Notes under the pieces: generated by a model
What the model was told of the DNA's origin: nothing
Database searches by the model: none
The model's input: the letters and a program-made list of their open reading frames with translations, nothing else
In this document: piece by piece, positions 7,265 to 49,950 of the stretch
Position numbering within the stretch: the first letter of the stretch is position 1
Layout: every line of letters begins with the position of its first letter
Program-made: the position numbers and the translations under genes
NCBI GenBank assembly: GCA_964632105.1
Contig: CAZWFH010000001.1
Span: 1-50,043, forward strand
DNA from: an uncultured Atribacterota bacterium
Lineage (GTDB): Bacteria > Atribacterota > Phoenicimicrobiia > Phoenicimicrobiales > Phoenicimicrobiaceae
DNA: 50,043 bases
Direction of reading: 5' to 3'

Positions 7265-7591
7265 AACTATCCTGCTGAAAAGATCGAAGAGAAAATAGAC
7301 CTGCTTCTTATCAAGAGGAATATCCAAAGTCCCGCCGGCTGGCTGATGGCAGCACTTAAGAATGATTATCAGGATTTGGAACAGGAAGGATTTGATGAAG
7401 AACCTGTAGGAGGAAGCGAGGATCTCAAATGTAGGGGCACGATGCATCGTGCCCTCAACGAATCGGGACAGATAAATCCGTCCCCTACAGAAACAAAGAT
7501 AAACTCTGGAGATAATAAAAAAATCCTCTCCAGTGAAGAAGTAATAAGACGGTTTAAACTTCTAAGACAAGAATTAATGGCAATGAATTAA
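7265..7591 (+). pseudogene. In-frame continuation of the Rep-like gene (C-terminal domain), cut off by a TAA stop
   Basis: Same frame as 6686-7264. NYPAEKIEEKIDLLLIKRNIQSPAGWLMAALKNDYQ is a typical Rep/DnaD-like C-terminal motif. It also carries an in-frame palindromic insertion at 7430-7457. Confidence 0.45.
7430..7457. repeat. TGTAG-family palindromic hairpin (copy inside coding sequence)
   Basis: TGTAGGGGCACGATGCATCGTGCCCTCA. The core GGGCACGATGCATCGTGCCC is a perfect 20-nt palindrome. Confidence 0.8.
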
Positions 7592-7603: not shown

Positions 7604-7660
7604 TGTAGAGACACGGCGTGCCGTGTCTTCTTCTTCACCACGGCACGCCGTGGTGCTACA
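7604..7660. repeat. Compound double-hairpin repeat (type B), copy 1
   Basis: TGTAG-AGACACGGCGTGCCGTGTCT-TCTTCTT-CACCACGGCACGCCGTGGTG-CTACA. A near-identical copy lies at 9311-9367. Confidence 0.85.
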
Positions 7661-8027: not shown

Positions 8028-8055
8028 GTAGGGGCGTATTGCCATACGCCCCTAC
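8028..8055. repeat. TGTAG-family palindromic hairpin in the sigma r2/r4 junction
   Basis: GTAGGGGCGTAT-TGCC-ATACGCCCCTAC: 12-bp arms and a 4-nt loop. Confidence 0.85.
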
Positions 8056-8075
8056 CAAATATCAGAAGGAGGATA

Positions 8076-8282
8076 ATGCTTTTGAGTAGATTAGAAAATA
8101 TCTTACTAAACAATAATTTAGAAGAAAATTATAATCTTTTGACTAAAAGAGAAAGAAAAATTATCAATTTGTATTATCTTGAGGGATATAAGGATAAAGA
8201 GATAGCAAAGATTTATGGTGTTTGCCAGCAATCGGTAAACGAAAGTCGTAAAAAAGGAATAAAAAAATTAAAATATTTTTAA
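8076..8282 (+). CDS. Sigma-70 family region-4-only protein (SigO-like half sigma)
   Basis: ATG 8076 follows AGGAGG (8067-8072). LTKRERKIINLYYLEGYKDKEIAKIYGVCQQSVNESRKKGIKKLK is a region 4.2 HTH. Confidence 0.7.
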   Translation: MLLSRLENILLNNNLEENYNLLTKRERKIINLYYLEGYKDKEIAKIYGVCQQSVNESRKKGIKKLKYF

Positions 8283-8485: not shown

Positions 8486-8758
8486 ATGGCCAGCGAATTA
8501 GGAGAAGTAACCAGTTATAAGAGACTGTATATGCAGTTTAGAGATAGTGCAGCTAAAACCATAAATCTAACCTTGAATAATCCCAAGAACGTAGATGATG
8601 GAGACTATGCTGACTTTGCGGCACAAGATGTCGCTGTTGAAGGAGTGATGGATACTATCATCGCCAAGAACATCTTCCATAATGATGGTAATGACTTAGT
8701 AGCCAAAGTAAATGCAAGAATCCTTGATTATAAGTCTACTGATGTTATGGATGTGTAG
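8486..8758 (+). CDS. DUF2922/DUF1659-like small protein
   Basis: 90 aa with RBS GAAGGAGG and no signal peptide. The pattern YKRLYMQFRD...KTINLTLNNPK...MDTIIAKNIF...LVAKVNARIL resembles the small DUF1659/DUF2922 proteins that accompany YvrJ in Firmicutes. Confidence 0.4.
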   Translation: MASELGEVTSYKRLYMQFRDSAAKTINLTLNNPKNVDDGDYADFAAQDVAVEGVMDTIIAKNIFHNDGNDLVAKVNARILDYKSTDVMDV

Positions 8759-8809: not shown

Positions 8810-8837
8810 GTAGGGGCGTATAGCGATACGCCCCTAC
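8810..8837. repeat. TGTAG-family palindromic hairpin
   Basis: GTAGGGGCGTAT-AGCG-ATACGCCCCTAC. It differs from the 8028 copy only in the loop. Confidence 0.85.
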
Positions 8838-9310: not shown

Positions 9311-9367
9311 TGTAGAGACACGGCGTGCCGTGTTTTCTTTTTCACCACGGCACGCTGTGGTGCTACA
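9311..9367. repeat. Compound double-hairpin repeat (type B), copy 2
   Basis: TGTAGAGACACGGCGTGCCGTGTTTTCTTTTTCACCACGGCACGCTGTGGTGCTACA. Confidence 0.85.
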
Positions 9368-9461
9368 CTCACTCCTTGCAACTCATATCTTGTATTTTAA
9401 TTGGTCAATCGGTAAATTAGTGAATTGGTCAATTAACTAACGACTGAAAGGAGTTTGTTCC

Positions 9462-14207: not shown

Positions 14208-14714
14208 TTATCCTTTCAACCCCGCTGTTTTTACCCCTTCGATGAAATATTTTTGTGCTAATACAAAGACTATTACTATTGGTAAAATGGACATCGCTGA
14301 GGCTGCCATCATTAATGGCCATTGGGTTAGTCCTTCTCGGAAACCCTTAAAACCAGCAATACCAAGAGCAAGGACTTTCATATTATCCGTGTTTATTACA
14401 ATAAGCGGGTAAGTAAAATCATTCCAGGCAGAACCAAAGGTAAATATAGCCATCGCTGCCAGTGCTGGCTTTACCAATGGTAACATTATACTCCAAAATA
14501 TTCTAAAAGGACTTGCTCCATCTATAATAGCTGCCTCTTCTAATTCCTTAGGTATGGTAAGGAAAAACTGTTTCAATAAAATACACTGAAAGCCCCACCG
14601 AATGCTCCCAGTGCATGAGGAATAATCAGAACCTGATAGGTGTTAATCCAATGTAAATTTTTTTTACTCAAGATGAAAATTAGCAAATTTAAATAGATTC
14701 AGAATTCGTTTCAT
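14208..14714 (-). pseudogene. Carbohydrate ABC permease remnant (internal deletion plus frameshift)
   Basis: The C-terminal half is intact (EAAIIDGASPFRIFWSIMLP...). An upstream frame reads LHWINTYQVLIIPHALGAFGGAFSVFY*. A 16-aa N-terminal stub MKRILNLFKFANFHLE* follows an AGGAGG at 14714. The middle TM segments are missing. Confidence 0.7.
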
Positions 14715-14868
14715 CGCCTCCTTTCCCCCTTTTGTTTGATTCATACTTCCTCAATACTACTTCTAATAATGTAATTTTACTTTTGTATTTACTGTTAAAA
14801 TCTTTTTTCTATATAATTTATATTTTCCCTCCTCTTCTCAAATTCTTTTATATTAATATTCTCCTATA

Positions 14869-24976: not shown

Positions 24977-26212
24977 TTATTTAAACTTATTACTCCCCTG
25001 ATATATCCTCATTTTTAAAGCTAACCTCAGTTGCACTGCATCATCAAACTTTTTTGGGTCTAAACTAGTTATCTCTTTAACCCTTCTTAATCTATAAAGC
25101 AAAGTATTACGATGTACATAGATAGCTTGAGCAGTTTTTGAAATACTTAAATTATTATCAAAAAAGGCTTTTAAAGTTTCTAATAATGTTTCGTTTATTT
25201 TCTTCTCTTTATTATTTTTTGTAGAATAAATAGTTTTTCCCATAAATTCTTGTTGACTTTCTTCTCTTATTTCTGCTAACAGCTTGCCTACACCCAGATT
25301 GTCTACATGATAAATATCTCCCGCCCCTTCCAATTTAGTCCCTACATCTAATGCCTGGGTAGCTTCTTTAAATGATTTATTTAAACCTTGAATACCTCCA
25401 TGATATTCTCCGATTCCGATGGTTACTTTAAATTTCATTTTCTGAGAAATGGTATCTTTTATTCTCTTTCCAATTCTAAATAATTTTCTTCTTAGAATTT
25501 CATCTGAATCTTTAAGATAAATAGTTTTCAGAACTACAAATCTATCCCCCCCCGTATAAGTTACAATTTCCTGGGGGGTATCCACAAATATCCCTTGAAT
25601 AGTTTTTAATACATCATTCTTTAATCTTTGTAAATGAATTTCTCCTTCTTTCGACCCTTTGAATACCTGCAAACTCTGCTTAGCGGTCTTTTCAAACTGA
25701 TAAATATCCATAACTAAGGCTACTCGGGGAATTAGGATATCATACCCCACAATTTGCCCTCGAGTTAAAAATAAATCTGAATCATTTCCAATTCTTCCGG
25801 AGATTAAATCTTGAATAAAATTTTCTCGAGCTTGTTGCTCTAATTGTAATTCCTTTAATAAAAATTCCTGCTCTAGCATCATCTCAACAGTCATCTTTAT
25901 CACTTCACCAAAAGGGCTAACTTCGTTTGGCTCACCGGTAATACCCACCACCCCAATAATTTTGTTATTATGTTCTATGGGGAGATTAATCCCTGGCTTT
26001 GCTCCTACTAAATGATTTATATCTTTGGAATAGATTTCTAACTTCTTCCCTTCTTTAATTACCTGAGCTGCCCCTTCATGAAATTGATTTAAACGACTTT
26101 TATCTCCTGAACCGATAATTACTCCTTCTTCGTTCATAATATTAATGTTTTTCCCCAAAATACTCATGGTTTTATCAACTATATCTTGTGCTAATTGATG
26201 GATAATCTTCAT
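24977..26212 (-). CDS. CdaR/PucR-type sugar-diacid regulator
   Basis: N-terminal diacid-recognition-like domain (IAQDIVDKTMSILGKNINIMNEEGVIIGSGDKSRLNQFHEGA). C-terminal PucR HTH (ISKTAQAIYVHRNTLLYRLRRV). Confidence 0.8.
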   Translation of the reverse strand: MKIIHQLAQDIVDKTMSILGKNINIMNEEGVIIGSGDKSRLNQFHEGAAQVIKEGKKLEIYSKDINHLVGAKPGINLPIEHNNKIIGVVGITGEPNEVSPFGEVIKMTVEMMLEQEFLLKELQLEQQARENFIQDLISGRIGNDSDLFLTRGQIVGYDILIPRVALVMDIYQFEKTAKQSLQVFKGSKEGEIHLQRLKNDVLKTIQGIFVDTPQEIVTYTGGDRFVVLKTIYLKDSDEILRRKLFRIGKRIKDTISQKMKFKVTIGIGEYHGGIQGLNKSFKEATQALDVGTKLEGAGDIYHVDNLGVGKLLAEIREESQQEFMGKTIYSTKNNKEKKINETLLETLKAFFDNNLSISKTAQAIYVHRNTLLYRLRRVKEITSLDPKKFDDAVQLRLALKMRIYQGSNKFK

Positions 26213-26240
26213 CAGTTACCACCTCCCTTTTAATAAAATT

Positions 26241-27230
26241 TGTATCGAGTATCGAGTTAAGAAAGAGAAAGAAAAGAAAAGAAATTAAAAAAACAGTATT
26301 GTAGCAGATGTATCGTTAAGAAAGAAAAACAATAATACTGTATTAAGTATATAATATCGAGTTAAGAAGATAAAATTCGTATCTCGTATATAGTATCGAG
26401 TATCGAGTATCGTGTATCGAGTCAAGAAAGAAAAAGAAAAGAAATAAAAAACAGTATTGCACTAAATATATTGTATTAAGTATATAATATCGAGTTAAGA
26501 AGATAAAATTCGTATCTCGTATCTCGTGAATCGTATCTCGCAAAGATAATAAAAACTAAGAATCAGAATAAATTTCTATTGCATATATAGTATATAGTAT
26601 CGAGTAACGTGTATCGTGTATCGTGTAAAGAAAGAGAAAGAAAAGAGATTAAAAAACAATATAGTACCAAATGTATCGTCAAGAAAGAGAAAGAAAAAAA
26701 CCATTCTACTTTTTATCTACCTCAATAAAGTTTATATCAGAAAATTGTCTTTTACAATTATCTTATTCGATAGAATAGGCAAAAATCCTTCTTTAATTAT
26801 ATATGATGATTTAAAAATTACAACATTAGACAAAAAAAGTATTATATAGTATCGAGTTAAGAAAGAGAAAGAAAAAAAATTAAAAGACAGTATCGTGCCA
26901 AATATATCGTTGAGGAAGAGAAAGAAAAATACTATTCTGCTTTTTATCTAAAAACTATAAACTAAAAACTAAAAACTTGTATTTATACTAACGACTAATT
27001 TAACCGGCAAACTGGTTAACCAGGTAACTGGATAACTAATATCCTATACGCTAAACGCTGATTAAATACTATCGACTATTTTAATTGGCAAATTTTTGTA
27101 TCTTGCATATTGTGGTTTTAATTGGTGAATTGGTAAATTGGTCAATTAATTTATTTTCTTTCCCTTTCTTAACTCGATACTATATACTCAATACTCGATA
27201 CTGTTTTTTAAATCGGTAAATTAATTACAA
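26241..27230. repeat. ~1 kb mosaic word-repeat array (four ~100-nt U units, two ~50-nt V units, then a chain of 7-8-nt tandem words)
   Basis: U copies start near 26241, 26391, 26587 and 26844 ((GTATCGA)n-AAGAAAGAGAAAGAAAAG-AAAAAACAGTAT...). V copies lie at 26339-26390 and 26471-26522. Words at 26945-27215: CTAAAAA, ACTAACGAC, CCAGTT/AACTGG, TACGCTAAACGC, AATTGGTN. An inverted U-type end lies at 27150-27208. Confidence 0.85.
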
Positions 27231-27488
27231 ATATTTTAATAAAAAAAGAGGAATTTGCTTTAAAAAATAGAATATATATAATATAAAATAGAAAAGTCTT
27301 TAATTCTTAAACTAAAAAATTAAAATAATTCGGTTCAAAAATGATATAATAAAAATAAGTTAAAAAAATTTTAATAAAAAAAGAGGAATTTTAAAAGTAA
27401 TGTTGAATATATAATTATTAAGTGTAAATTCTTTTAGTCGATTTTTTCGATTTTATCCGTAAAATTATAAAATAATAAAAAAGAAAGG

Positions 27489-28601
27489 ATGGTAGATATG
27501 TATAGAGAAAATTTGAAATTAAGTTTTGTAATCTTTTTAATAATTTTATTAGCCCTTTTTACTACCACTGTCTTTGCCAGCAGTGAAACAGAAAAATTAT
27601 TGCAAGAAATCATAGAAGGCAAAACCATGAAACCTGACATCTTTGCTTTCATCAATATGGGAAACTTTTATTGTTCGTTAGACCTATATGAACCTGCGGA
27701 AAAAGAATACGAAAAAGCTTTGGGTTTAGATGAAACGAATATATTGGCCGGGATAAATCAGAGTTATGCTTTGTACAAAATGGGGGAAAAAGAATCAGCT
27801 CTTACCAATCTATCTCAAATTATTATCGAAGACTCCAATAATGCCTTTGCCTATTTTGTAAAGGGAATGATATACAAAGAAACACTCGAATATGACTTAG
27901 CTATAAATGAATACGAAAAAGTTGTTGAACTCATTCCCCAAAATGACAAGCTTATTTCCGAATTAGCCCAGCTCTACCAGGATAATGACCAACTAATTGA
28001 AGCTACGGAAACATATATAAAATTGGGTAAACTTAAACCCAGCCCTTATATCCTGGACAATTTTTTAGCTTACCAGGAAAGTGCTGCCTGTTATTTGAAT
28101 TTGGGTGATTATTATAGTAGTGTGGGAAACATTGATCAAGCTGTATTTGCCTATAATAAAGTTACTCAATTTACCGAAGATAAACGGTCAATAGCTATAG
28201 CCCATTATCGATTAGGACTTATTAATCTAAAAGGTAAAAAATACGAACAAGCCATAATGGAAAAAGTATTATCCCAAAAATTTTACCCATTATACATCAA
28301 AGATTTTACTTTTGATAATTTTGCCCAGGCTTTTATTGAAATAGGCAACATGCATTATAATGCGGGAGAACTCCAAAAGGCTTATCAAAATTATGAACTG
28401 GCTCTCCAATTAGCAGATTCAAATTATATCCTCTCAGAAGCACATTATAAATTAGGACTATCTTATTACCGCAGCCAGGATTACGAAAATGCTGTAAGAG
28501 AAGGAGAAATTGCCTTAAGTCTAAATCCCGAATATTTATCTGACCAACAAAGATTAATTGACCTTTTGATTGCTAATGCTTGGTCTAATTTTACTAAATA
28601 A
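27489..28601 (+). CDS. Secreted tetratricopeptide (TPR) repeat protein
   Basis: Signal-like N-terminus, then repeated A-x3-Y-x(n)-G TPR units (GNFYCSLDLYEPAEKEYEKALGLD and others). The start is either 27489 or 27498. Confidence 0.75.
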   Translation: MVDMYRENLKLSFVIFLIILLALFTTTVFASSETEKLLQEIIEGKTMKPDIFAFINMGNFYCSLDLYEPAEKEYEKALGLDETNILAGINQSYALYKMGEKESALTNLSQIIIEDSNNAFAYFVKGMIYKETLEYDLAINEYEKVVELIPQNDKLISELAQLYQDNDQLIEATETYIKLGKLKPSPYILDNFLAYQESAACYLNLGDYYSSVGNIDQAVFAYNKVTQFTEDKRSIAIAHYRLGLINLKGKKYEQAIMEKVLSQKFYPLYIKDFTFDNFAQAFIEIGNMHYNAGELQKAYQNYELALQLADSNYILSEAHYKLGLSYYRSQDYENAVREGEIALSLNPEYLSDQQRLIDLLIANAWSNFTK

Positions 28602-28860
28602 AGAATAAAATAGTATCGAGTATATAGTATACCGTATGATAGAGTAGAGCGGATAGGATATTAGTTATGCAGTTACCCGGTTAACCAGTTTGCCAGTTAA
28701 TAAGTTTCGAGTTACAAGTTTCTGGTTTCAAGTTTACAGAGAGAGGTAGGGGCTTGATTTATCAAGCCCGCAAAACTCGAGACAGATAACCCGTATACTA
28801 TAAACTGTTTTTTTACTAACGACTATTCACTAACGACTATTAAAATAAATTCGAGGTGAA
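28602..28860. repeat. Mosaic word-repeat patch with a TGTAG-type hairpin
   Basis: GTATCGAGTATATAGTAT; CCGGTTAACCAGTTTGCCAGTT; GTTACAAGTTTCTGGTTTCAAGTTTACAG; hairpin GTAGGGGCTTGATTTATCAAGCCC (28747-28771); ACTAACGACTATTCACTAACGACTATT. Confidence 0.8.
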
Positions 28861-30052: not shown

Positions 30053-30931
30053 CTATTTAACTTCTTCTTTTCTTAGATAGACTACCTGTCTGGGGAAGGG
30101 AATTTCTATTCCTTCTTTATCAAAAGCATCTTTAATTCTTCGTTTAAGTTCTCTCTCTGCTCCCCAATGAGTCATTGGCTTAACTTTAATTGCTATTCTT
30201 AAAATAACATCTGAAGAACCGAGAGATAATACCCCTTGAATAATTGGAGGTTCTAAAACAATATTTTTATTCTCCTCAGCCCATTTATTGGCAATTTCTT
30301 CTAAGGCTTTCATTCCTCTTTCTACATCTTGTTCATAGGCTACCCCTACTTCAACAATGGCTCTCATATACCCTTTATTAAAATTACCAAAACTAGCAAT
30401 TTCTCCATAAGGGATTACTCTTAACTCGCCTGAAAACTTCCTTAAATGAATATTCCTTAAACCAATAACTTCCACTGTTCCAGAATGTTCTCCTACGTTA
30501 ATAGAATCTCCCACCGAAATCACCCCTTCAAAAAGTAGAAAGACACCTGAAATAACATCTTTCACTAGAGATTGAGCTCCAAAACCAACTGCTAAACCAA
30601 CAACTCCGGCACTGGCAATAATCGCGGTAGTATCTATCCCTAATTCTCTTAATACTATTACTCCGGTAATAAAATAAATTACATATTTAGAAACACTCTG
30701 CAAAAGCGGAATAAGAGTATTCGCTCGAGAAATTTTCTTCTGATAATTTTTAGATTTTTCTAAAGGGGTTAAAGATTTTTCTATTAGTTTATTAATTACA
30801 GATAAAGCTATCTTTGCTACCACTAATATTATAATAATTGTTATAAATTTTCCCCACCACAGAATAAGATTTTCCGGACTAAAAATACTTAATACCGCTT
30901 GCCAAAAACTGTTCATATATTGCATAAACAT
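30053..30931 (-). CDS. Small-conductance mechanosensitive channel (MscS family)
   Basis: ATG 30931 lies 8 nt after AAGGAG. Three TM helices, then GAQSLVKDVISGVFLLFEGVISVGDSINV of the MscS pore/beta domain. Confidence 0.85.
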   Translation of the reverse strand: MFMQYMNSFWQAVLSIFSPENLILWWGKFITIIIILVVAKIALSVINKLIEKSLTPLEKSKNYQKKISRANTLIPLLQSVSKYVIYFITGVIVLRELGIDTTAIIASAGVVGLAVGFGAQSLVKDVISGVFLLFEGVISVGDSINVGEHSGTVEVIGLRNIHLRKFSGELRVIPYGEIASFGNFNKGYMRAIVEVGVAYEQDVERGMKALEEIANKWAEENKNIVLEPPIIQGVLSLGSSDVILRIAIKVKPMTHWGAERELKRRIKDAFDKEGIEIPFPRQVVYLRKEEVK

Positions 30932-30964
30932 TAAAGTCTCTCCTTTACAATTTATATTTGTCAA

Positions 30965-31137
30965 TAAATTAATTTACCAATTTACCGATTAGTCGATAGT
31001 ATTTAATTAGCGTATAGCGTACAGCGGGTAGCGTATAGGCACGGGGAACAATTGCGGGAAAAAATACGAATACTAAAGACGCAAAAATTTCCCACAGTCT
31101 GCCCGTAGGACAGGCGTCTCGCCTGTCTAAAGTAAAT
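30965..31137. repeat. Mosaic word-repeat patch plus hairpins downstream of clpB
   Basis: TTACCAATTTACCGATT; GTCGATAGTATTT; AGCGTATAGCGTACAGCGGGTAGCGTATAGG; hairpin GACAGGCG-TCTC-GCCTGTC. Confidence 0.75.
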
Positions 31138-33732
31138 TTATATTTTTTTGAAAATTATTTTCTCATTTTTTTCATCCAAATCGGTTTCTAATTTATCCCC
31201 CTCTTTAAAAACTCCTTCTAAAATTTGCAAGGCCAAGGGGTCTTGAATGTACCTTTGAATGGTTCTCTTTAAAGGTCGAGCACCATAATGAGGGTCATAT
31301 CCTTTTTCAGCTAAAAATTCTTTTGTTTTTTGAGTAATTTTTAAATAAACTTTTTTAGTTACTAATCTCTTTTTTAAAATATTGAGCTGGATATCCACGA
31401 TTTTAATAATCTGCTCTTTATCTAAATTGTTAAAGATAATTATCTCATCAAGTCTATTTAAAAATTCTGGCTTAAAGTACTCACGAAGAGAATCGTTTAC
31501 TTTTTGCATAACAGACTCTCTATTCCCCTCATTCATTTCGTAGATCCACTGACTACCAATATTCGAAGTCATAATCAAAATAGAATTTTTAAAATTAACT
31601 ACCCTTCCCTGTCCGTCAGTTAGACGGCCATCATCTAAAATCTGCAACAAAACATTAAAAACATCGGGATGAGCTTTCTCAATTTCATCAAAGAGAATAA
31701 CTGAATAAGGTTTGCGCCTGACAATTTCAGTAAGTTGACCACCTTCTTCATATCCTACATAGCCTGGCGGAGCCCCGATTAACCGGGCTACACTGTGTCT
31801 CTCCATATATTCAGACATATCGATACGCACTAGAAAATTTTCATCATTAAATAAAAAATCAGCCAAACTACGAGCGAGCTCAGTTTTACCTACTCCTGTA
31901 GGCCCCATAAAGATAAATGATCCTACTGGTCTATTGGGATCCGCTATCCCCACTCGGGATCTCCTGATAGCATTAGAAACTAACCTAATCGCCTCATCTT
32001 GTCCAACAACTCTTTGTTTAAGCTCTTCTTCAATCCTGACTAATTTATTTGCTTCCCCCTCCATAAGTCGGCCAATAGGGATGCCGGTCCATTTGGAAAT
32101 AATTTCTGTAATATCCTCTTCATCAACTTCTTCTTTAAGCATTTTATGTTCTTTTTGCAAAGTAATTAGTTTTTTATTCTCTTCCGCTAAATCTTTTTGT
32201 AGTTGAGGGAACTTTCCATATTTTAATTCTGCTACTCGATTAAGATTACCTTCTCTCTCTTCTTTCTCAGCTTCTATTTTATTCTTTTCAATACTACTTT
32301 TTATTTTTCGTATTCTCTGGATTGATTCCTTCTCATTCTTCCATTTTAATTTCATCCCATCTCTTTTTTCTTTTAAAGAACTTAGTTCCTTTTCTATTTT
32401 ATTTAAATGTTCCTGAGAAATAGAATCTTTTTCTTTCTTTAAAGCATGCTTTTCTATTTCTAATTGAATAATTTTTCTTTCCACTTCATCTATCTCTATA
32501 GGCATACTATCGATTTCCATCCTCAAACGGGAGGAAGCTTCATCTATCAGATCAATTGCCTTATCTGGCAAAAATCTATCGGTAATATAGCGATTAGATA
32601 ATATGGCTGCAGCAACTAAAGCTGAATCTTTAATTCTTATTCCATGATACACTTCATATTTCTCTTTTAATCCTCTTAAAATGGCAATAGTATCTTCTAC
32701 TGAGGGTTCCTTTACTAACACTGGTTGGAATCTTCTCTCCAATGCAGCATCTTTTTCGATATATTTTCTATATTCCTTTAAAGTTGTAGCTCCGATACAA
32801 TGCAATTCGCCCCGAGCTAAAGCCGGCTTTAACATATTGGAAGCATCTATTGCTCCTTCAGCTGCTCCTGCTCCCACTAAAGTATGGAGTTCATCAATAA
32901 AAACAATTATTTTACCTTCCGCTTTTTGGATCTCTTTTAAAACTGCTTTTAAACGATCTTCAAATTCACCTCTATATTTTGCGCCAGCTACCATAGAACT
33001 AATATCTAAAACCAGTACCTTTTTATTTTTTAATCCTTCCGGAATATCTCCACTTACAATTCTCTGGGCTAAACCTTCAGCAATTGCTGTCTTACCTACT
33101 CCCGGTTCACCAATTAAAACAGGATTATTTTTAGTACGCCGTAAAAGTATTTGCATAACCTGTCGTATTTCATCATCCCGCCCAATTACCGGATCAAGTT
33201 TCCTTTCTCTAGCTAAATCAGTTAGATCACGAGCATATCTTTCTAAAGCTTGATATTTTTCCTCTGGATTTTGATCAGTTACCCGCTGATTTCCTCTAAT
33301 ATTCACTAAAGCCTGATAGATTTTATCTTTATTAATCCCTTCTTTTTTTAATAAATCACTAACTATGGTTCCTTCTGCTTCAACCAAAGCAATAAATAAA
33401 TGTTCCGTACTAACATATTCATCTTTTACTTTTTGGGCTTCTTGTTGAGCTGTATTCAATATATTATTAAGTTTATTCCCTATATGTTGTCCTCCTGTTG
33501 CTCCATAAACCTGAGGAATTTTTTCTAGCAGCCTTTCTAATTTAACTTTGAGTTGTTCAAAATTAATTTCTAACTTCTGCAATATCGAAGGCACAACTCC
33601 GTCTTTTTGATTAATTAAAGCCAGTAAAAGATGCTCCCCCCTAATCTCTTGGTGATTATAACTACTGGCAATTTGTTGAGCTTCTCCAATAGCTTCTTGA
33701 GCTTTTACTGTAAACTTATCAAATTTAATCAT
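31138..33732 (-). CDS. clpB: ATP-dependent chaperone/disaggregase ClpB
   Basis: Two AAA+ modules ([18 protein letters not shown]) with a long coiled-coil middle domain between them. ATG 33732 follows AAGGTGG. Confidence 0.95.
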
Positions 33733-36334: not shown

Positions 36335-36485
36335 TTTTATCCCTCTTTTTTATTTTGTATTTTACCATATTTTACTTTTAATTTTAAGAGTTTTTCTTTT
36401 TCTCTATATATTATATTCTACAACAAATGTAAAATCCCTGCATAAATTTTATTTTTTTTCAAAATTTTTTCAGTTATAAATTAAT

Positions 36486-36990
36486 TCACCAATTCTCCAA
36501 TTTGCCAATTTGCCAATTTAAAAAACAGTATCGAGTATTGAGTATATAGTATCGAGTTAAAAAAGGGGAAGAAAATAAATTAATTGACCAATTTGACAAT
36601 TCTCCAATTAATAAAATTTGTAAGATATAATATGCGAGATTCAATAAAAAGATGCAAGATACAAAGATTACAATTAACCGATTAAGCAATATAGTAATTT
36701 GCCAATTTGCCGCTTAGCCAATTAAATTAGTCGTTAGCAATAAACCTAGCGTATAGTGTATATTGTTTAGCGTATAGTAATTTAGAATCGTATATTGTGT
36801 ATTAGTTACCCAGTTACCTTGTTCACCAGTTTCCAGTTTCTTTAAGATAAAATCTTCTCTAACTTCTATCTCTATTTGCCAGATTCTCAAATCTTGAAAG
36901 TTTTTTATCTTCTCAGTCATTCTTCTCTTTCTTTTTCCTTCTTTGCTCGATACTCGATACTATATACTCGATACTATCTTTATATCAATT
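36486..36990. repeat. Mosaic word-repeat region holding two long dispersed-repeat copies
   Basis: 36521-36612 is ~90% identical to the reverse complement of 27116-27208. 36745-36872 is ~87% identical to the reverse complement of 43281-43408, with a ~50-nt perfect core. Track ORFs 36486-36689 and 36714-36920 and the first ~55 codons of 36943-38109 are repeat artefacts. Confidence 0.85.
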
Positions 36991-37107
36991 GATTACCCTT
37001 TAAAGAAATGTTATAATTTTTTAAGTTATAAAGATAATATTTTTTATTATATTACAATTAATTTTATAAAAATAAAATACTTCGGCCTTGGGAGGAATAT
37101 ACTACAT

Positions 37108-38109: not shown

Positions 38110-38183
38110 AGAATTTTTGACTTTTTCTAATATATATGTTATCTTATTAAAAATTTAATATTTGTACCTCACTTTTTTCTTAA

Positions 38184-38368
38184 GTGAGGTGGAGGCGCGA
38201 GCAATAATCAGTACTGGTGATGAGATGAGCATCTTTGATTCGCCAGGAAAGGCATTCTCGCCGAAGCGTTAAAGATAACAGCTCTAATCTTTATGCTGGG
38301 TTTATGGTTAAAAGCCATAAGACTGTCATCAGAATCTATACCCTGGTTTCTGATGGAGCGCTATCTCA
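38184..38368 (+). promoter_or_regulatory. Lysine riboswitch (L-box) aptamer
   Basis: Conserved blocks in order: GGAGGCGCGAGC, GGAAAGGC, TCGCCGAAGCG, CTGGG, GACTGTCA, TGGAGCGCTATC. P1 pairs TGAGGT (38184-38189) with ATCTCA (38363-38368). It lies upstream of lysA. Confidence 0.85.
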
Positions 38369-38413
38369 TCTGATGAGAGAAATGGGAGTAAATTTAATTG
38401 TTAGATTAATTTC

Positions 38414-38456: not shown

Positions 38457-38580
38457 TTTATGAATTTGAATTGCCTGTCTATACAAATGTAGGGATTTGA
38501 TTTATCAAACCCTCTTATACCTTATGCCATTGCAGCTTAAAACTAAATACTAACGACCAACGACTAACAACTATTTTAAG
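38457..38580. repeat. Mosaic repeat patch between the riboswitch terminator and the lysA RBS
   Basis: Hairpin TGTAGGGATTTGATTTATCAAACCCT (38488-38514) and AAATACTAACGACCAACGACTAACAACTATTTT (compare 5591-5624). Confidence 0.8.
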
Positions 38581-38589
38581 GAGGAATTA

Positions 38590-39927
38590 ATGAATAATCA
38601 AAACAATATAACACCTCGAATTAATCGAGAAGGTCTTTCCCTAAATAAATCTGGAAATTTAGAATTCGACCGATGTGAGCTTGTAAAATTAGCCCAAAAA
38701 TATGGAACCCCCTGTTATATTTTTTCGGAAAGTATAATTAGAAAAAAATGTCGGCAATATACTTCTGCTTTTTCTAAAAGAAACATTGATTTTGAAATAA
38801 TTTATGCTGGTAAAGCCTTTTTGGTTAAAGCAATGTGTAATGTCTTAAAGGAAGAGGATTTAAGTCTGGATGTTTCTTCTGGCGGAGAATTATATACTGC
38901 CCTTTCAGTAGGATTCCCACCGGAAAAAATATTTTTCCATGGGAATAACAAATCCAAAAAAGAAATAGAATTCTCTCTTAAAGAAAAAATTGGCACCATG
39001 ATGGTAGATAGTGAGTATGAACTCAACGTAATTAGCCAGGTTGCAGAAAGTTTAAATACGAAGGTGGAAATAATTCTCCGGGTAACTCCGGGAATAGATA
39101 CTCATACTCATAAATATATTCAAACCGGACAGGTAGATTCAAAATTTGGAATCAGTATTGATAGTATCCCTGATTTCATAAAAAAAGTTCTTTCTATGAA
39201 AAATATTTCATATAAGGGTCTGCATTTTCATCTCGGTTCACAAATTTTTGATCTATTTCCTTATGTCCTAGCTATCAAGGAAATGGCAAAACTTATTAAG
39301 CAAATAAAAGATCTTTGGGGAATAGATACCCCTAATCTAAATTTGGGTGGAGGTTTAGGGGTGAAATACCTTGAATCTGATCAACCTCCTTCCGTAGAAT
39401 ATTTTGTAAATTTAATTGTTGATAATCTTGCAAAAGAAATAAAAGAAAATAATTTAGTAATGCCTAAGATATTGATAGAACCAGGAAGGTCTATAGTGGC
39501 GGAAGCAGGCATTACTCTCTATACTATCGGTAACATAAAAGAAATACCGGGAATTAGAAAATACCTTATTGTAGATGGAGGTATGGCTGATAATCCTCGA
39601 CCAATCCTTTATCAAGCAAAATATGAAGCTGTTTTAGTAAATAAAGTAAATGATAATCTTCCTAAGGAATTGGTAACTATTGCCGGGAAATGTTGTGAAT
39701 CAGGAGATATTTTAATAAAAAATTTGAAACTTCCTTCAGCTTCACCGGGGGATCTTTTAGCAGTATTTACCACTGGGGCTTATCATTATTCTATGTCCAG
39801 CAATTATAACCGACTTCCCCGGCCAGCGGTCGTCCTGGTAAATCAAGGAAAAGATGGTTTAATGGTAAAAAAAGAAACTTATAGTGATATTGTAAGAAAC
39901 GATACCATACCAGAGTGGTTTAAATAA
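38590..39927 (+). CDS. lysA: Diaminopimelate decarboxylase
   Basis: 445 aa. YAGKAF (PLP lysine), HFHLGSQ, EPGRSIVA, CESGD and AYHYSMSSNYN are typical LysA blocks. Confidence 0.9.
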   Translation: MNNQNNITPRINREGLSLNKSGNLEFDRCELVKLAQKYGTPCYIFSESIIRKKCRQYTSAFSKRNIDFEIIYAGKAFLVKAMCNVLKEEDLSLDVSSGGELYTALSVGFPPEKIFFHGNNKSKKEIEFSLKEKIGTMMVDSEYELNVISQVAESLNTKVEIILRVTPGIDTHTHKYIQTGQVDSKFGISIDSIPDFIKKVLSMKNISYKGLHFHLGSQIFDLFPYVLAIKEMAKLIKQIKDLWGIDTPNLNLGGGLGVKYLESDQPPSVEYFVNLIVDNLAKEIKENNLVMPKILIEPGRSIVAEAGITLYTIGNIKEIPGIRKYLIVDGGMADNPRPILYQAKYEAVLVNKVNDNLPKELVTIAGKCCESGDILIKNLKLPSASPGDLLAVFTTGAYHYSMSSNYNRLPRPAVVLVNQGKDGLMVKKETYSDIVRNDTIPEWFK

Positions 39928-41187: not shown

Positions 41188-41470
41188 ATTTGGCACAAGC
41201 CAAATTCGTATCGCGTATCGAGTATCGAGTATTGCGTAAAGAGAAAAAGGAGTTACAAGATACAAGGTGCAAGTTGCAAGTAGGGGCGTATTGCATACGC
41301 CTTAATAGCGTATAGCGTATAGTTAAGAAAGAAGGAGTCAGAATATAGAAACCAAATTAATATGTGGTGTATATAGTAAATAAAAAAGAAATCAGGAGGC
41401 AAAATTCAGGAATCAAAATAAATTCGTACGCGATACGCAATGCGATATACGATATACGAAAATAAAAAAG
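41188..41470. repeat. Mosaic word-repeat patch inside the lysine operon
   Basis: CGTATCGCGTATCGAGTATCGAGTATTGCG; CAAGATACAAGGTGCAAGTTGCAAG; degenerate hairpin GTAGGGGCGTATTGCATACGCC; AGCGTATAGCGTATAG; TACGCGATACGCAATGCGATATACGATATACG. Confidence 0.8.
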
Positions 41471-43171: not shown

Positions 43172-43425
43172 AACAGAAGTCAGGAGCCAGAATAAAATCG
43201 TATCTCGTATCTCGTGAATCGTATCTCGTTGAGAAATAAGTATCGAGTATATAGTATAGAATATTTAGTTAAGGAAATAAGAGATAGAGGTTGGAGAAGA
43301 TATCATCTCAAAGCAACTGGTAAACTGGTGAACAAGGTAACTGGGTAACTAATACACAATATACGATTCTAGATTATTATACGTTAAACGCTGTATGCTA
43401 TACGCTAGTAAAGGAAAAAATCATT
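43172..43425. repeat. Mosaic word-repeat patch between dapB and dapF
   Basis: CGTATCTCGTATCTCGTGAATCGTATCTCG (43199-43228) is identical to 26511-26540. 43281-43408 is the long repeat shared with 36745-36872. Confidence 0.85.
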
Positions 43426-44286
43426 ATGAAAATTGATTTTGTAAAAATGCATGGATTAGGGAATGATTTTATTTTAATCGATTGTATAAATAAATCATTG
43501 GGTGACTCTTTATTTCTCTCTTATCTGGCAAAAAAACTTTGCAACCGTAACTTTGGAATTGGTGCAGATGGACTAATACTTATCTTGCCCTCATCTAAGG
43601 CAGATTTAAAAATGAGAATTTTTAACTATGATGGTAGCGAAGCCCAGATGTGTGGAAATGGAATTAGATGTTTTGCTAAATATGCCTATGAAAATAATTT
43701 AATTTCAAAAAATAAATTTGCTGTAGAAACCTTAGCAGGTATAATCACTCCTGAACTAATTTTTCAAAATTTAAAAGATAAAAAAGTTTTAAGAATCAAA
43801 GTAAATATGGGAACCCCAAAATTAAGAAGAAGAGAAATACCTATGACCGGTGAAGATACTCCCACAGTAGTGGATGAAACATTGAAGATAAATTCCGAGC
43901 AGACTTTTAAAGTCACCTGTGTCTCTATGGGAAACCCTCATTGTATAGTCTTTGTAGATGATGTACAATCTATACCAGTAGATAAAATTGGCCCAAAAAT
44001 TGAAAATCATCCCCTCTTCCCTGAAAAAACTAACGTAGAATTTATTCAAGTTATAAATAAGAAAGAGATAAACTTCAGAGTATGGGAAAGAGGAGTAGGA
44101 GAAACTTTGGCTTGCGGAACCGGAGCATGTGCAGCTTTGATAGCTGCAGTTTTGAATAAAAAGACCGATCGGAAAGCTACAATTCATTTATCTGGTGGAG
44201 ATTTAGATATCCTATGGGCTGATGATGGATATGTCTATATGACTGGCCCAGCAGAATTAGTATTCAAGGGAGAAATAATTATTTAA
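43426..44286 (+). CDS. dapF: Diaminopimelate epimerase
   Basis: KMHGLGNDF, MCGNGIRC and ACGTGACA (the two catalytic cysteines). Confidence 0.9.
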   Translation: MKIDFVKMHGLGNDFILIDCINKSLGDSLFLSYLAKKLCNRNFGIGADGLILILPSSKADLKMRIFNYDGSEAQMCGNGIRCFAKYAYENNLISKNKFAVETLAGIITPELIFQNLKDKKVLRIKVNMGTPKLRRREIPMTGEDTPTVVDETLKINSEQTFKVTCVSMGNPHCIVFVDDVQSIPVDKIGPKIENHPLFPEKTNVEFIQVINKKEINFRVWERGVGETLACGTGACAALIAAVLNKKTDRKATIHLSGGDLDILWADDGYVYMTGPAELVFKGEIII

Positions 44287-44350
44287 TTGACCAATTCACC
44301 AATTAATTTTAGTTAGCCAGTTTGCCGGTTAACCAGTTTACCAGTCGAAT
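44287..44350. repeat. Word-repeat patch (CCAATT/CCAGTT words) between dapF and dapL
   Basis: TTGACCAATTCACCAATTAATTTTAGTTAGCCAGTTTGCCGGTTAACCAGTTTACCAGTCG. Confidence 0.8.
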
Positions 44351-49734: not shown

Positions 49735-49950
49735 AAAATGGGGAAACACGGTGGTTTCCTTCTTCCGCGGGAACGACAAAGGAAAGATACAAAAATAATA
49801 ATGAAAAGACGAAATAGTGTATCGCATACAATTTTATAATAATTTTTGGTTTATTGGTTGTAACTGGTTGTAGGGGCACAATGAATTGTGTCCTCGCCAT
49901 ATTACTGCCTGATTTTTTTCTGCGGGCACGATGCATCGTGCCCCTACATC
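49735..49950. repeat. Hairpin repeat cluster (TGTAG family and related)
   Basis: GGAAACACGGTGGTTTCC; TGTAGGGGCACAATGAATTGTGTCC (degenerate); GGGCACGATGCATCGTGCCCCTACA (49924-49948), which has the same core as 7430-7457. Confidence 0.75.

Follow-up and report, generated by a model that had tools for sequence, protein, structure and literature searches.

Why should two divergently transcribed bacterial genes be separated by more than a kilobase of nested repeats? The question is posed by a 50,043-nt stretch of DNA from an uncultured Atribacterota bacterium (GenBank assembly GCA_964632105.1, contig CAZWFH010000001.1, positions 1 to 50,043; hereafter the window), in which a 1276-nt divergent intergenic region (26213-27488) without a credible open reading frame (ORF) lies between the gene for a PucR/CdaR-type regulator (24977-26212, minus strand; Pfam Diacid_rec + GGDEF_2 + HTH_30) and the gene for a TPR protein (27489-28601, plus strand). 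Our analysis leads us to the likely answer that the region is a stack of ORF-less terminal modules from a family of hairpin cassettes of the four-helix-bundle or intervening-sequence (IVS) type, selfish or neutral in nature and with possible secondary effects on the neighbouring promoters.

An earlier note on this DNA had described the region as non-coding and built of nested repeats, and self-comparison bears this out. The only ORFs are of 46-77 aa, read through the repeats, encode low-complexity peptides and have no Pfam match. A repeat search recovers the four direct ~100-nt units of the note, with starts near 26242, 26392, 26597 and 26849 (3-4 copies of 43-102 nt, 61-88% identity), as well as two copies of an interleaved unit, which measures 60 nt (26335-26394 and 26468-26527, 95% identity). 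The tandem words of 7-8 nt are likewise there (GTATCGA, TCGTATC, CTAAAAA, TTAACCAG/CAAACTGG and AATTGGTA, by Tandem Repeats Finder, TRF), and the chain of such words is followed, as the note had it, by an inverted copy of the first unit (27146-27213), with 76-91% complementarity over 38-68 nt to every direct copy. A chance origin, which the note had thought improbable, is excluded because the 27-mer GTATCGAGTTAAGAAAGAGAAAGAAAA (≤3 mismatches) occurs 6 times and the 19-mer AGTATCGAGTATATAGTAT (≤2 mismatches) 8 times in the window, against 0.00 in dinucleotide shuffles (100 of them for the 27-mer). Each ~100-nt unit is itself made of two tandem modules of the same type, in which an array of heptamers is followed by a purine run; the basic module reads AAAACAGTAT, then (CGAGTAT/ATAGTAT)n, then the purine run.

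The heptamer module and its gene cassette

These modules recur across the window, in no fewer than 10 other intergenic regions. Words or units shared with the array lie at 9399, 28610-28850, 30960-31040, 36480-36977, 38541, 41207-41460, 43198-43400 and 44285-44345 (k-mer sharing, TRF), and under a strict definition 12 of the 12 period-7 arrays in the window are intergenic where only 21% of the sequence is (p = 6e-9). Beyond the window, at least 109 contigs contain the exact 19-mer (one genome per species searched). Nearly all of them belong to metagenome-assembled or single-amplified genomes of Atribacterota, among them Ca. Sediminicultor, Ca. Oleincola and SCGC AAA255-G05, which places the window itself in a JS1-type Atribacterota. 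Period-7 arrays outnumber period-6 arrays by 489 to 53 in 666 kb of loci, and their words are mostly GTATNNN. Around the 19-mer the pairing of array and purine run is conserved, giving a composite of heptamers followed by the purine run AGTTAAGAAAG(C/A)GAAAGAAAAG, and about 30 copies continue into a 'core' that ends sharply at ...ACTACCCCACTAAAGTTTACACTAA (nhmmer), the core derivative having a size of ~110-130 nt. The family thus pervades the non-coding DNA of JS1-type Atribacterota, and the region 26213-27488 is the largest local pile-up of a genome-wide repeat family.

A clue to what the module is comes from a second cassette shell in the window (36519..36977, minus strand), which is bounded by inverted end-modules at 36977-36925 and 36575-36519. 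A minus-strand ORF in 36900->36660 begins MTEKIKNFQDLRIWQIEIEV and dissolves into word chains, and tblastn identifies 36920-36837 as the first 29 codons of a four-helix-bundle gene (E = 1.8e-7) ahead of this decay. Intact cassettes are present in five other loci (L072, L104, L089, L039 and L066), where the gene encodes a protein of 116-119 aa that matches PF05635 (23S rRNA-intervening sequence protein; E = 1.9e-39) and TIGR02436 ('four helix bundle protein'). All five have the same layout: on the 5' side a stop codon, ~6 nt, AAACAGTAT with a heptamer array, the purine run and ATG, and on the 3' side TAA, a pyrimidine run, an inverted array ending ...ATACTGTTTT and then ~25 nt that contain the Shine-Dalgarno (SD) sequence of the next gene. 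The purine run of the intact cassettes is the SD region of the four-helix-bundle gene. Since the intact copies share this arrangement of a gene between inverted arrays, the module (array plus purine run) forms the terminal inverted repeats of a gene cassette of ~0.5 kb.

As a check on selection by the 19-mer, further contexts (L123-127) were gathered by the protein alone. They comprise three independent insertion sites (a pilin operon, alaS-ruvX and HD-GYP-T2SSF) with the same arms, and the inverted-repeat z scores of their flanks are 8.1-10.9, a level attained by 0 of 200 shuffles. In one of them (L127) several right-end modules are stacked in tandem, the same phenomenon that the pile-up in 26213-27488 shows. 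Among adjacent arrays of all Atribacterota loci, convergent pairs outnumber divergent ones by 30 to 6 (p = 7e-5), and the median gap is 244 nt. A locus labelled Levyibacteriota (L070) has GTAT-type heptamer arms around a homologue of 52% identity.

An intact element thus consists of a module, a ~119-aa four-helix-bundle gene and an inverted module, together a potential hairpin of ~0.5 kb, and is inserted between a stop codon and the SD or promoter of the next gene. Co-transcribed inverted ends may form double-stranded RNA that RNase III could remove, by analogy with the intervening sequences of rRNA, which would make insertion between cistrons tolerable. Most copies would have lost the four-helix-bundle gene, and the modules that are left may multiply locally through slippage and unequal recombination; discrete insertions of modules are seen as well. 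The element is probably selfish or neutral, its effects on the genes beside it being secondary at most.

Two side observations concern the dispersed copies. A ~110-nt composite, GAGATAGAGGTTGGAGAAGAT..AACTGGTAAACTGGTGAAC..ATACACAATATACGATTC, is common in inverted orientation to 36768-36873 and 43270-43386 and recurs in another species (L115, 91.6%); at its start it is similar to the 'EIEV' codons of the four-helix-bundle gene. Some contigs labelled Actinomycetota or Saccharibacteria (L019, L041, L055, L060 and L078) have a low GC content (0.33-0.38) and contain the element in its Atribacterota form; they probably represent Atribacterota DNA that was binned wrongly, and the heptamer-module repeat could act as a lineage marker in bin curation.

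Anatomy and turnover of the array

Read from the regulator side, the array opens with modules A, X1, B, X2 and C (26242-26740), all of the left-end type and directly oriented. Unit A (26242..26334, plus strand) begins 29 nt upstream of the regulator start codon and consists of two tandem end-modules, (GTATCGA)2 with the purine run AGTTAAGAAAGAGAAAGAAAAGAAAAG and then AAAAAAACAGTATTG..ATGTATCGT with a further purine run. Unit X1 (26335..26394, plus; 60 nt) is a variant end-module, GTATTAA GTATATA ATATCGA plus AGTTAAGAAGATAAAA and then TCGTATC words, whose minus strand has a weak promoter-like site (TCGATA-17-TATTAT). Unit B (26386..26467, plus) has 5 heptamers of the AGTATCG type, a purine run and AAAAAACAGTATTGC, while unit X2, again of 60 nt, occupies 26468..26540 (plus) together with a (TCGTATC)n array; 26335-26467 and X2 form a partial tandem duplication with a 133-nt period. 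Unit C (26584..26740, plus) has an array of GTATATA/GTATCGA/GTATCGT, a purine run and a second module, and its terminus is a degenerate copy of the phylum-wide core (26682-26737; nhmmer E = 5e-6). Next comes a unique segment (26741..26842, minus) that is ~97% conserved in a divergent allele of the region (contig L005) and contains the best sigma-70-like promoter directed toward the regulator (26823->26796, TTGTAA-16-TATAAT, 10/12). Given the position of this promoter, the regulator gene probably has a 5' leader of ~577 nt that takes in modules A-C.

The second half of the array can fold into a hairpin. Unit D (26843..26960, plus) provides with its left part the left arm of this long-range structure, in which module E is the partner; the second module of D holds a degenerate core (26913-26951; E = 6e-3), and the end of its array precedes the -35 box of the 26823 promoter by 24 nt. 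A word chain follows (26946..27147, plus), made of (CTAAAAA)4, ACTAACG, the 8-mers TTAACCGG/CAAACTGG/GTAACTGG, TATACGC/TAAACGC and (AATTGGNN)3-4, and is mostly kept in the L005 allele. Module E (27151..27212, minus) is an inverted end-module with a pyrimidine run, an ACTCGAT/ACTATAT array and ACTGTTTTTT. D and the inverted E (26843 to 27213) bracket the space between two divergent promoters; their arms are 46 nt long and 91% complementary in a D-E unit of 371 nt. The ends of the predicted RNA fold of 26835-27220 pair in a ~55-bp stem (-94.6 kcal/mol vs -58.2 ± 4.4 for shuffles, z = -8.3), and the ends of the intact L072 cassette are likewise predicted to pair (z = -3.6). The region has the long-stem inverted repeats and the AG-rich heptamer 5' end of IVS-type elements; a PF05635 ORF and an rRNA location are absent, and with no such ORF between the arms it is an ORF-less derivative and not a full IVS-type member.

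The earlier note had proposed that array length be compared between strains, and such a comparison has a mixed outcome. Of four strain-level contigs, three (L001, L002 and L116, from three metagenomes) match the window exactly along the full length of the array; a metagenome scan for strains contributed only one contig, identical across the array. L005 is a rearranged allele from the same sample as L116 (JGI 3300031575): its regulator gene is 99.9% identical and its unique segments are 92-97% identical, but its modules are rearranged, with the A..X/B..X' pair present once, D vestigial, E absent and a regulator leader ~110 nt shorter. Set against this allele, module E stands out as a clean insertion of 62 nt. 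Where it is present the site has the sequence ...GGTCAATTAATT[62 nt]GGTAAATTAATT|ACAAAT with a 12-nt flanking duplication, and the empty site in L005 reads ...AATTGGTAAATTAATT|ATAAAT with a single copy of the 12-mer. A discrete gain is also seen in the species CSMAG_886 (~90% identity; L028), where a complete 128-nt element of array plus core lies between two genes and the corresponding window site at ~16134 is empty; in the 36335-37099 spacer this species has another chain of words, set between promoter-proximal flanks that are conserved. Modules are thus gained, lost and duplicated one by one, more slowly than in contingency loci, and with L001, L002 and L116 matching the window over the array, fast hypervariability is not supported. 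Extra DNA of related species at ~14680 and ~38110 was considered as candidate cassettes and proved to be ordinary transporter genes. Where near-identical contigs differ, their mismatches are grouped in blocks (27611-27686, 28236-28430 and 30614-31143 among others), which suggests recombination mosaics in the population.

Elsewhere in the window the family takes the form of dispersed arrays. One (28610..28631, plus) begins 9 nt past the stop codon of the TPR gene; a (CGTATCG/AGTATCG)n array (41207..41238, plus) lies 20 nt past a stop codon and continues with a purine run, (AGTTACA)n and a REP-like hairpin (REP, repetitive extragenic palindrome); and (TCGTATC)n + AGTATCGAGTATATAGTAT arrays (43198..43257, plus) occupy an intercistronic spacer orthologous to loci L081 and L115 of other Atribacterota species.

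The hairpins belong to a family separate from the heptamer modules, although they often stand next after modules in word chains. These are GTAG-headed, GC-rich palindromes such as GTAGGGGCGTATTGCCATACGCCCCTAC, several of them arranged as inverted doublets as in REPs and REPINs (REP doublets), at 7431-7488, 7605-7659, 8028-8055, 8810-8837, 9312-9366, 28746-28770, 31105-31128, 38489-38513, 41280-41302 and 49870-49947; none lies within 26213-27488. Small ORFs occur between REP-like hairpins at 8070-8280 and 8486-8758, and by eye the former resembles a sigma-70 region-4/LuxR-type HTH peptide. At 38182-38371 (plus) the window has a lysine riboswitch (Rfam RF00168, 109.9 bits) that precedes the gene at 38590-39927; next come a REP-like hairpin and, directly before the SD, an (ACTAACG)n array. 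Within the region itself, on the side of the TPR gene, 39-nt direct repeats at 27218-27256 and 27353-27391 (90% identical) end in AAAAAAAGAGGAATTT in a conserved stretch upstream of that gene, and could be a duplicated SD- or promoter-like sequence.

Placement at gene boundaries and rival explanations

If the modules are insertions that settle between genes, where precisely do they stop? Read in the AGTATCG-> orientation, arrays begin a median of 12 nt past a co-directional stop codon (≤14 nt in 27/44). Read the other way, 39 of 180 array ends have a strong -35/-10 pair at 8-20 nt (mode 12), where 2.1 are expected from shuffled flanks and 2 from an offset window. The core derivative is locked in orientation, as the adjacent gene is transcribed away from the array end in 27 of 28 cases (p = 2e-7). 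In locus L062 (~6540) a core element and a promoter (TTGACA-17-TAACAT) stand directly upstream of a tRNA gene, so that upstream placement is not confined to protein genes. Flush placement can be read in one of two ways: either the element fills unconstrained DNA up to the nearest signal, or one of its orientations has been co-opted as an insulator or upstream module.

Several observations weigh against the derivation of the array from selfish or neutral cassettes. No remnant of the four-helix-bundle gene is detected by tblastn in 26213-27488, so the link to the cassettes there rests on module homology; no transposase or other mobility enzyme is associated with the element, the only cargo found being the four-helix-bundle gene; and causality may be reversed, in that four-helix-bundle genes could have inserted into pre-existing arrays. 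Loci L007-L115 were picked by the 19-mer, and counts made on them are biased. A target-site duplication is clear at E only, with none clear at the L028 insertion, and L005 keeps most of the D-E interior while lacking E, which indicates that D-E is not one inserted unit. With 3 of 4 strain-level contigs identical, turnover is not fast. The spacing to the -35 box is tight and could point to a promoter-related function rather than to neutrality. In addition, the proposed 12-bp hairpin of the core has 83% pairing, which does not exceed that of column shuffles, and shows no covariation beyond composition, and scans for intrinsic terminators are negative in the window and in consensus copies.

The rival that best withstands these data holds that the array in the orientation ...ACTCGATACT->, along with the hairpin and the T-rich run of that strand, has been co-opted upstream of promoters as an insulator or terminator, or as a platform for a protein or for the C-terminal domain of the RNA polymerase alpha subunit, and so tunes both divergent genes. 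The excess of -35/-10 pairs at array ends and the orientation lock of the core are what such a role would predict, as are unit D ending 24 nt before the 26823 promoter and the 36946-36977 array ending 13 nt before TTGATT-17-TGTTATAAT, the promoter of a Na/Ca-exchanger gene; in addition, the gene-sense strand of the core consists of a hairpin and then TTTTCTTTCGCTTTCTT. But flush placement is equally expected of a selfish element that occupies unconstrained DNA, the same arrays are found in the opposite orientation right after stop codons and within operons, and both the L005 allele and the species in L036 swap modules while their promoters are kept. Owing to the lack of covariation in the core hairpin and the negative terminator scans, we retain co-option as a rival but consider it unlikely.

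Could the words instead have arisen where they stand? In this explanation the array consists of heptamer simple-sequence repeats (SSRs) that expanded by slippage in situ and then diverged, with no cassette or mobile element involved. Words of period 7 and 8 do dominate, their copy number varies between alleles and species, and heptamers are the commonest long SSR class in prokaryotes (PMC4679880). Slippage alone, however, accounts poorly for identical composite modules of 60-110 nt at unrelated loci and in different species, for the strong convergent pairing of arrays, for discrete insertions with flanking duplication, or for the consistent tie between arrays and PF05635 genes. A segment of ~105 nt around E is ~93% identical to the one at 36490-36600, and near-identity over such a length points to shared descent. 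We therefore regard pure slippage as improbable.

A contingency or tuning locus, in which the number of modules in the leader and promoter region would set expression of the PucR/CdaR-type regulator, seems slightly less probable again. Modules A-C do separate the best promoter (26823->26796) from the start codon, the shortened and rearranged leader of L005 comes from the same sample as the window-type L116, and there is a precedent in the heptamer SSRs upstream of Haemophilus influenzae hmw1A (PMC12721329, PMC8262952). Three of the four contigs are nevertheless identical across the array, L005 differs by 3-8% in its unique segments too and is thus a diverged allele and not a slippage variant, and the modules flank many unrelated genes. 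This last point also leaves unsupported the locus-specific role that the earlier note had implied, be it a dedicated small or long RNA or a binding array for the CdaR-type regulator, given that the modules stand beside unrelated genes and in more than 100 Atribacterota contigs. Its remark that size and internal order are unusual holds for bacteria in general but not within this lineage, in which such arrays are the norm.

One or more dedicated non-coding RNA genes within the array, whether for a small or a long RNA, are very improbable. The D-E segment folds far better than its shuffles, yet this fold is simply that of the inverted repeat; covariation is absent, RNAalifold returns essentially no consensus structure (-0.23 kcal/mol), the region has no Rfam match at E ≤ 1 and no tRNA, the window has no match in an rRNA search, promoter-like sites in the array are not enriched (11 vs 10.9 expected), no terminator is found, and modules are replaced wholesale between alleles and species. 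To the last candidates, an operator array for the PucR/CdaR-type regulator, a degenerate clustered regularly interspaced short palindromic repeat (CRISPR) locus or a replication origin, we give next to no credence, for although the array adjoins the regulator gene and its repeated units have irregular 'spacers', the modules are dispersed genome-wide and phylum-wide, the spacing is irregular (158-363 nt), the repeats are 61-88% identical and the 'spacers' are themselves repeats with no cas genes nearby, in line with the rejection of a CRISPR in the earlier note, and the region has no DnaA boxes (15 in the window vs 15.8 by chance), with GC-skew changes in the window tracking gene orientation.

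Heptamer arms in other phyla and known systems

If tandem heptamers are arms of the cassette rather than a local feature of Atribacterota, they should accompany PF05635 genes in other hosts as well. A tblastn search of plasmids with the Atribacterota protein returned 39 records, mostly from Nostoc, Calothrix, Anabaena and Trichormus. For 8 of the 12 loci fetched the 130-nt flanks consist of tandem heptamers and are significantly inverted-complementary (score attained by 0 of 200 shuffles); seven of these are from Nostoc edaphicum ((GGGAACA)n/(TGTTCCC)n, z = 15.2), Anabaena 90 (GGTGACA, z = 12.9), Geminocystis (z = 11.2), Riemerella (AAGGTTY, z = 10.7), Stanieria (z = 8.8), Picosynechococcus (z = 6.5) and Leptolyngbya (z = 6.2). 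The eighth is on the Azospirillum lipoferum plasmid AZO_p2 (L133), where an unannotated PF05635 homologue (14392-14730, z = 14.9) lies within a 23S rRNA gene between inverted repeats of the GGACGGA/GGACAGA type, a classical intervening sequence with arms of the same style. In a 50-kb segment of a Nostoc plasmid the four-helix-bundle gene is the only one of 37 coding sequences to have inverted flanks (z = 18.6, others ≤3.4), and ORF-less convergent heptamer pairs are present in that segment too.

This small cross-phylum sample supports a wider heptamer-arm reading without proving it, and we put forward, tentatively and at a little below even confidence, that inverted tandem-heptamer arrays are the native arms of one widespread class of selfish hairpin cassettes with PF05635 (S23p/Avd-like) cargo, and that a large part of the intergenic heptamer repeats of bacteria are its ORF-less remains. 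Such remains would include the short tandemly repeated repetitive (STRR) sequences of cyanobacteria, the GGGAATC pairs of Xanthomonas, the arrays of Bacteroidota and the words of Atribacterota, and the classical intervening sequences of 23S rRNA would be a special case that landed in rRNA. PF05635 genes in cas operons would likewise be insertions. Array-flanked four-helix-bundle genes are found at cas6-X-cas4 or cas10-X-cmr3 in Pseudanabaena (L122), Anabaena 90 (L131) and Picosynechococcus (L130), and they look like selfish insertions, not cas genes, although the PF05635-type family between cas genes was earlier taken to have a cas-associated function (PMC3936711). The pentameric PF05635 protein might recognise the 7-nt-periodic arms.

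What would follow if this is true? We know of no accepted origin or function for the heptamer repeats on record in cyanobacteria since 1990, and to our knowledge the S23p four-helix-bundle protein of rRNA intervening sequences is equally unexplained; the cassette link may explain the origin of bacterial 7-base tandem repeats, and would offer a testable model for both puzzles (inverted arms, processing of double-stranded RNA, recognition of the arms by the protein). It would also account for why repeat chains, which fragment assemblies and mislead binning, make up much of the non-coding DNA of JS1 Atribacterota, and would advise caution against locus-specific readings of PF05635 genes in cas loci or of arrays near regulators.

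Searches that omit much of the subscription literature found no report on Atribacterota repeats, and none linking PF05635 genes with heptamer arrays save the description of the Coxiella IVS; the STRR/TAACTGA review and the Xanthomonas GGGAATC paper do not mention the four-helix-bundle gene (PMC4679880, PMC4692102). Among the repeat systems that have been described, MITEs (miniature inverted-repeat transposable elements) and REP elements or bacterial interspersed mosaic elements (BIMEs) are, like the Atribacterota modules, short, non-autonomous, dispersed and intergenic, with inverted ends and presence/absence polymorphism. The one clear flanking duplication recalls MITEs and the modular mosaic build recalls BIMEs. 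Unlike MITEs, the modules have no related transposase-bearing element, and their ends are tandem-repeat arrays and not unique terminal inverted repeats.

Heptamer repeats offer a closer parallel. The STRR heptamers of cyanobacteria, reportedly described by Mazel in 1990, and other long SSRs are, like the arrays studied here, tandem 7-nt units that are intergenic, dispersed and made of lineage-specific words. The host here is Atribacterota, in which the words STRR1-3 are absent and GTATCGA, GTATATA, TCGTATC, TAGCGTA and similar words take their place, and, unlike STRRs as described, the arrays are arms of inverted-repeat cassettes with a cargo gene. For long heptamer SSRs, polymerase slippage was proposed by Mrazek 2007, as relayed in a later review (PMC4679880). 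The TAACTGA repeats of marine Beggiatoaceae, Cyanobacteria and Bacteroidetes (MacGregor 2015), proposed as a site for a translational regulator (PMC4679880), are also abundant intergenic heptamers a few nt from gene boundaries, just as some Atribacterota arrays end directly before an SD; they are, however, a single word, mostly direct and placed right before start codons, whereas Atribacterota has many words, inverted pairs and a cargo gene. The GGGAATC arrays of Xanthomonas (Rehm et al. 2015) resemble ours in being intergenic heptamers in convergent pairs, with 70-75 arrays per genome in closely spaced convergent inverted pairs and positions conserved between species. They are G-rich, were reported without mention of a cargo gene and were read as formers of G-quadruplexes (PMC4692102), which the AT-rich Atribacterota arrays cannot form.

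The closest known system is the IVS of 23S rRNA with its S23p ORF (PF05635), as in Leptospira, Coxiella burnetii and Xanthomonas. The Coxiella element, selfish and 428 nt long, is bounded by inverted repeats at which RNase III cuts, and in it an AG-rich SD and then strain-variable tandem heptamers (GACAGAT) lie upstream of a decaying S23p ORF (PMC4990558). The Atribacterota elements share with the 23S IVS their small size (~0.4-0.5 kb), inverted repeats that form a long stem, cargo of the PF05635 family, an AG-rich SD with a variable number of tandem heptamers and frequent decay of the ORF, down to ORF-less versions. They differ in lying between protein-coding genes and not in rRNA helices, in arms made of long GTATNNN heptamer arrays plus a purine run, and in having modules, mostly ORF-less and also solo or stacked, that have probably multiplied to hundreds. 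What appears new here is that heptamer arrays and the S23p gene are parts of one element, seen first in an uncultured phylum.

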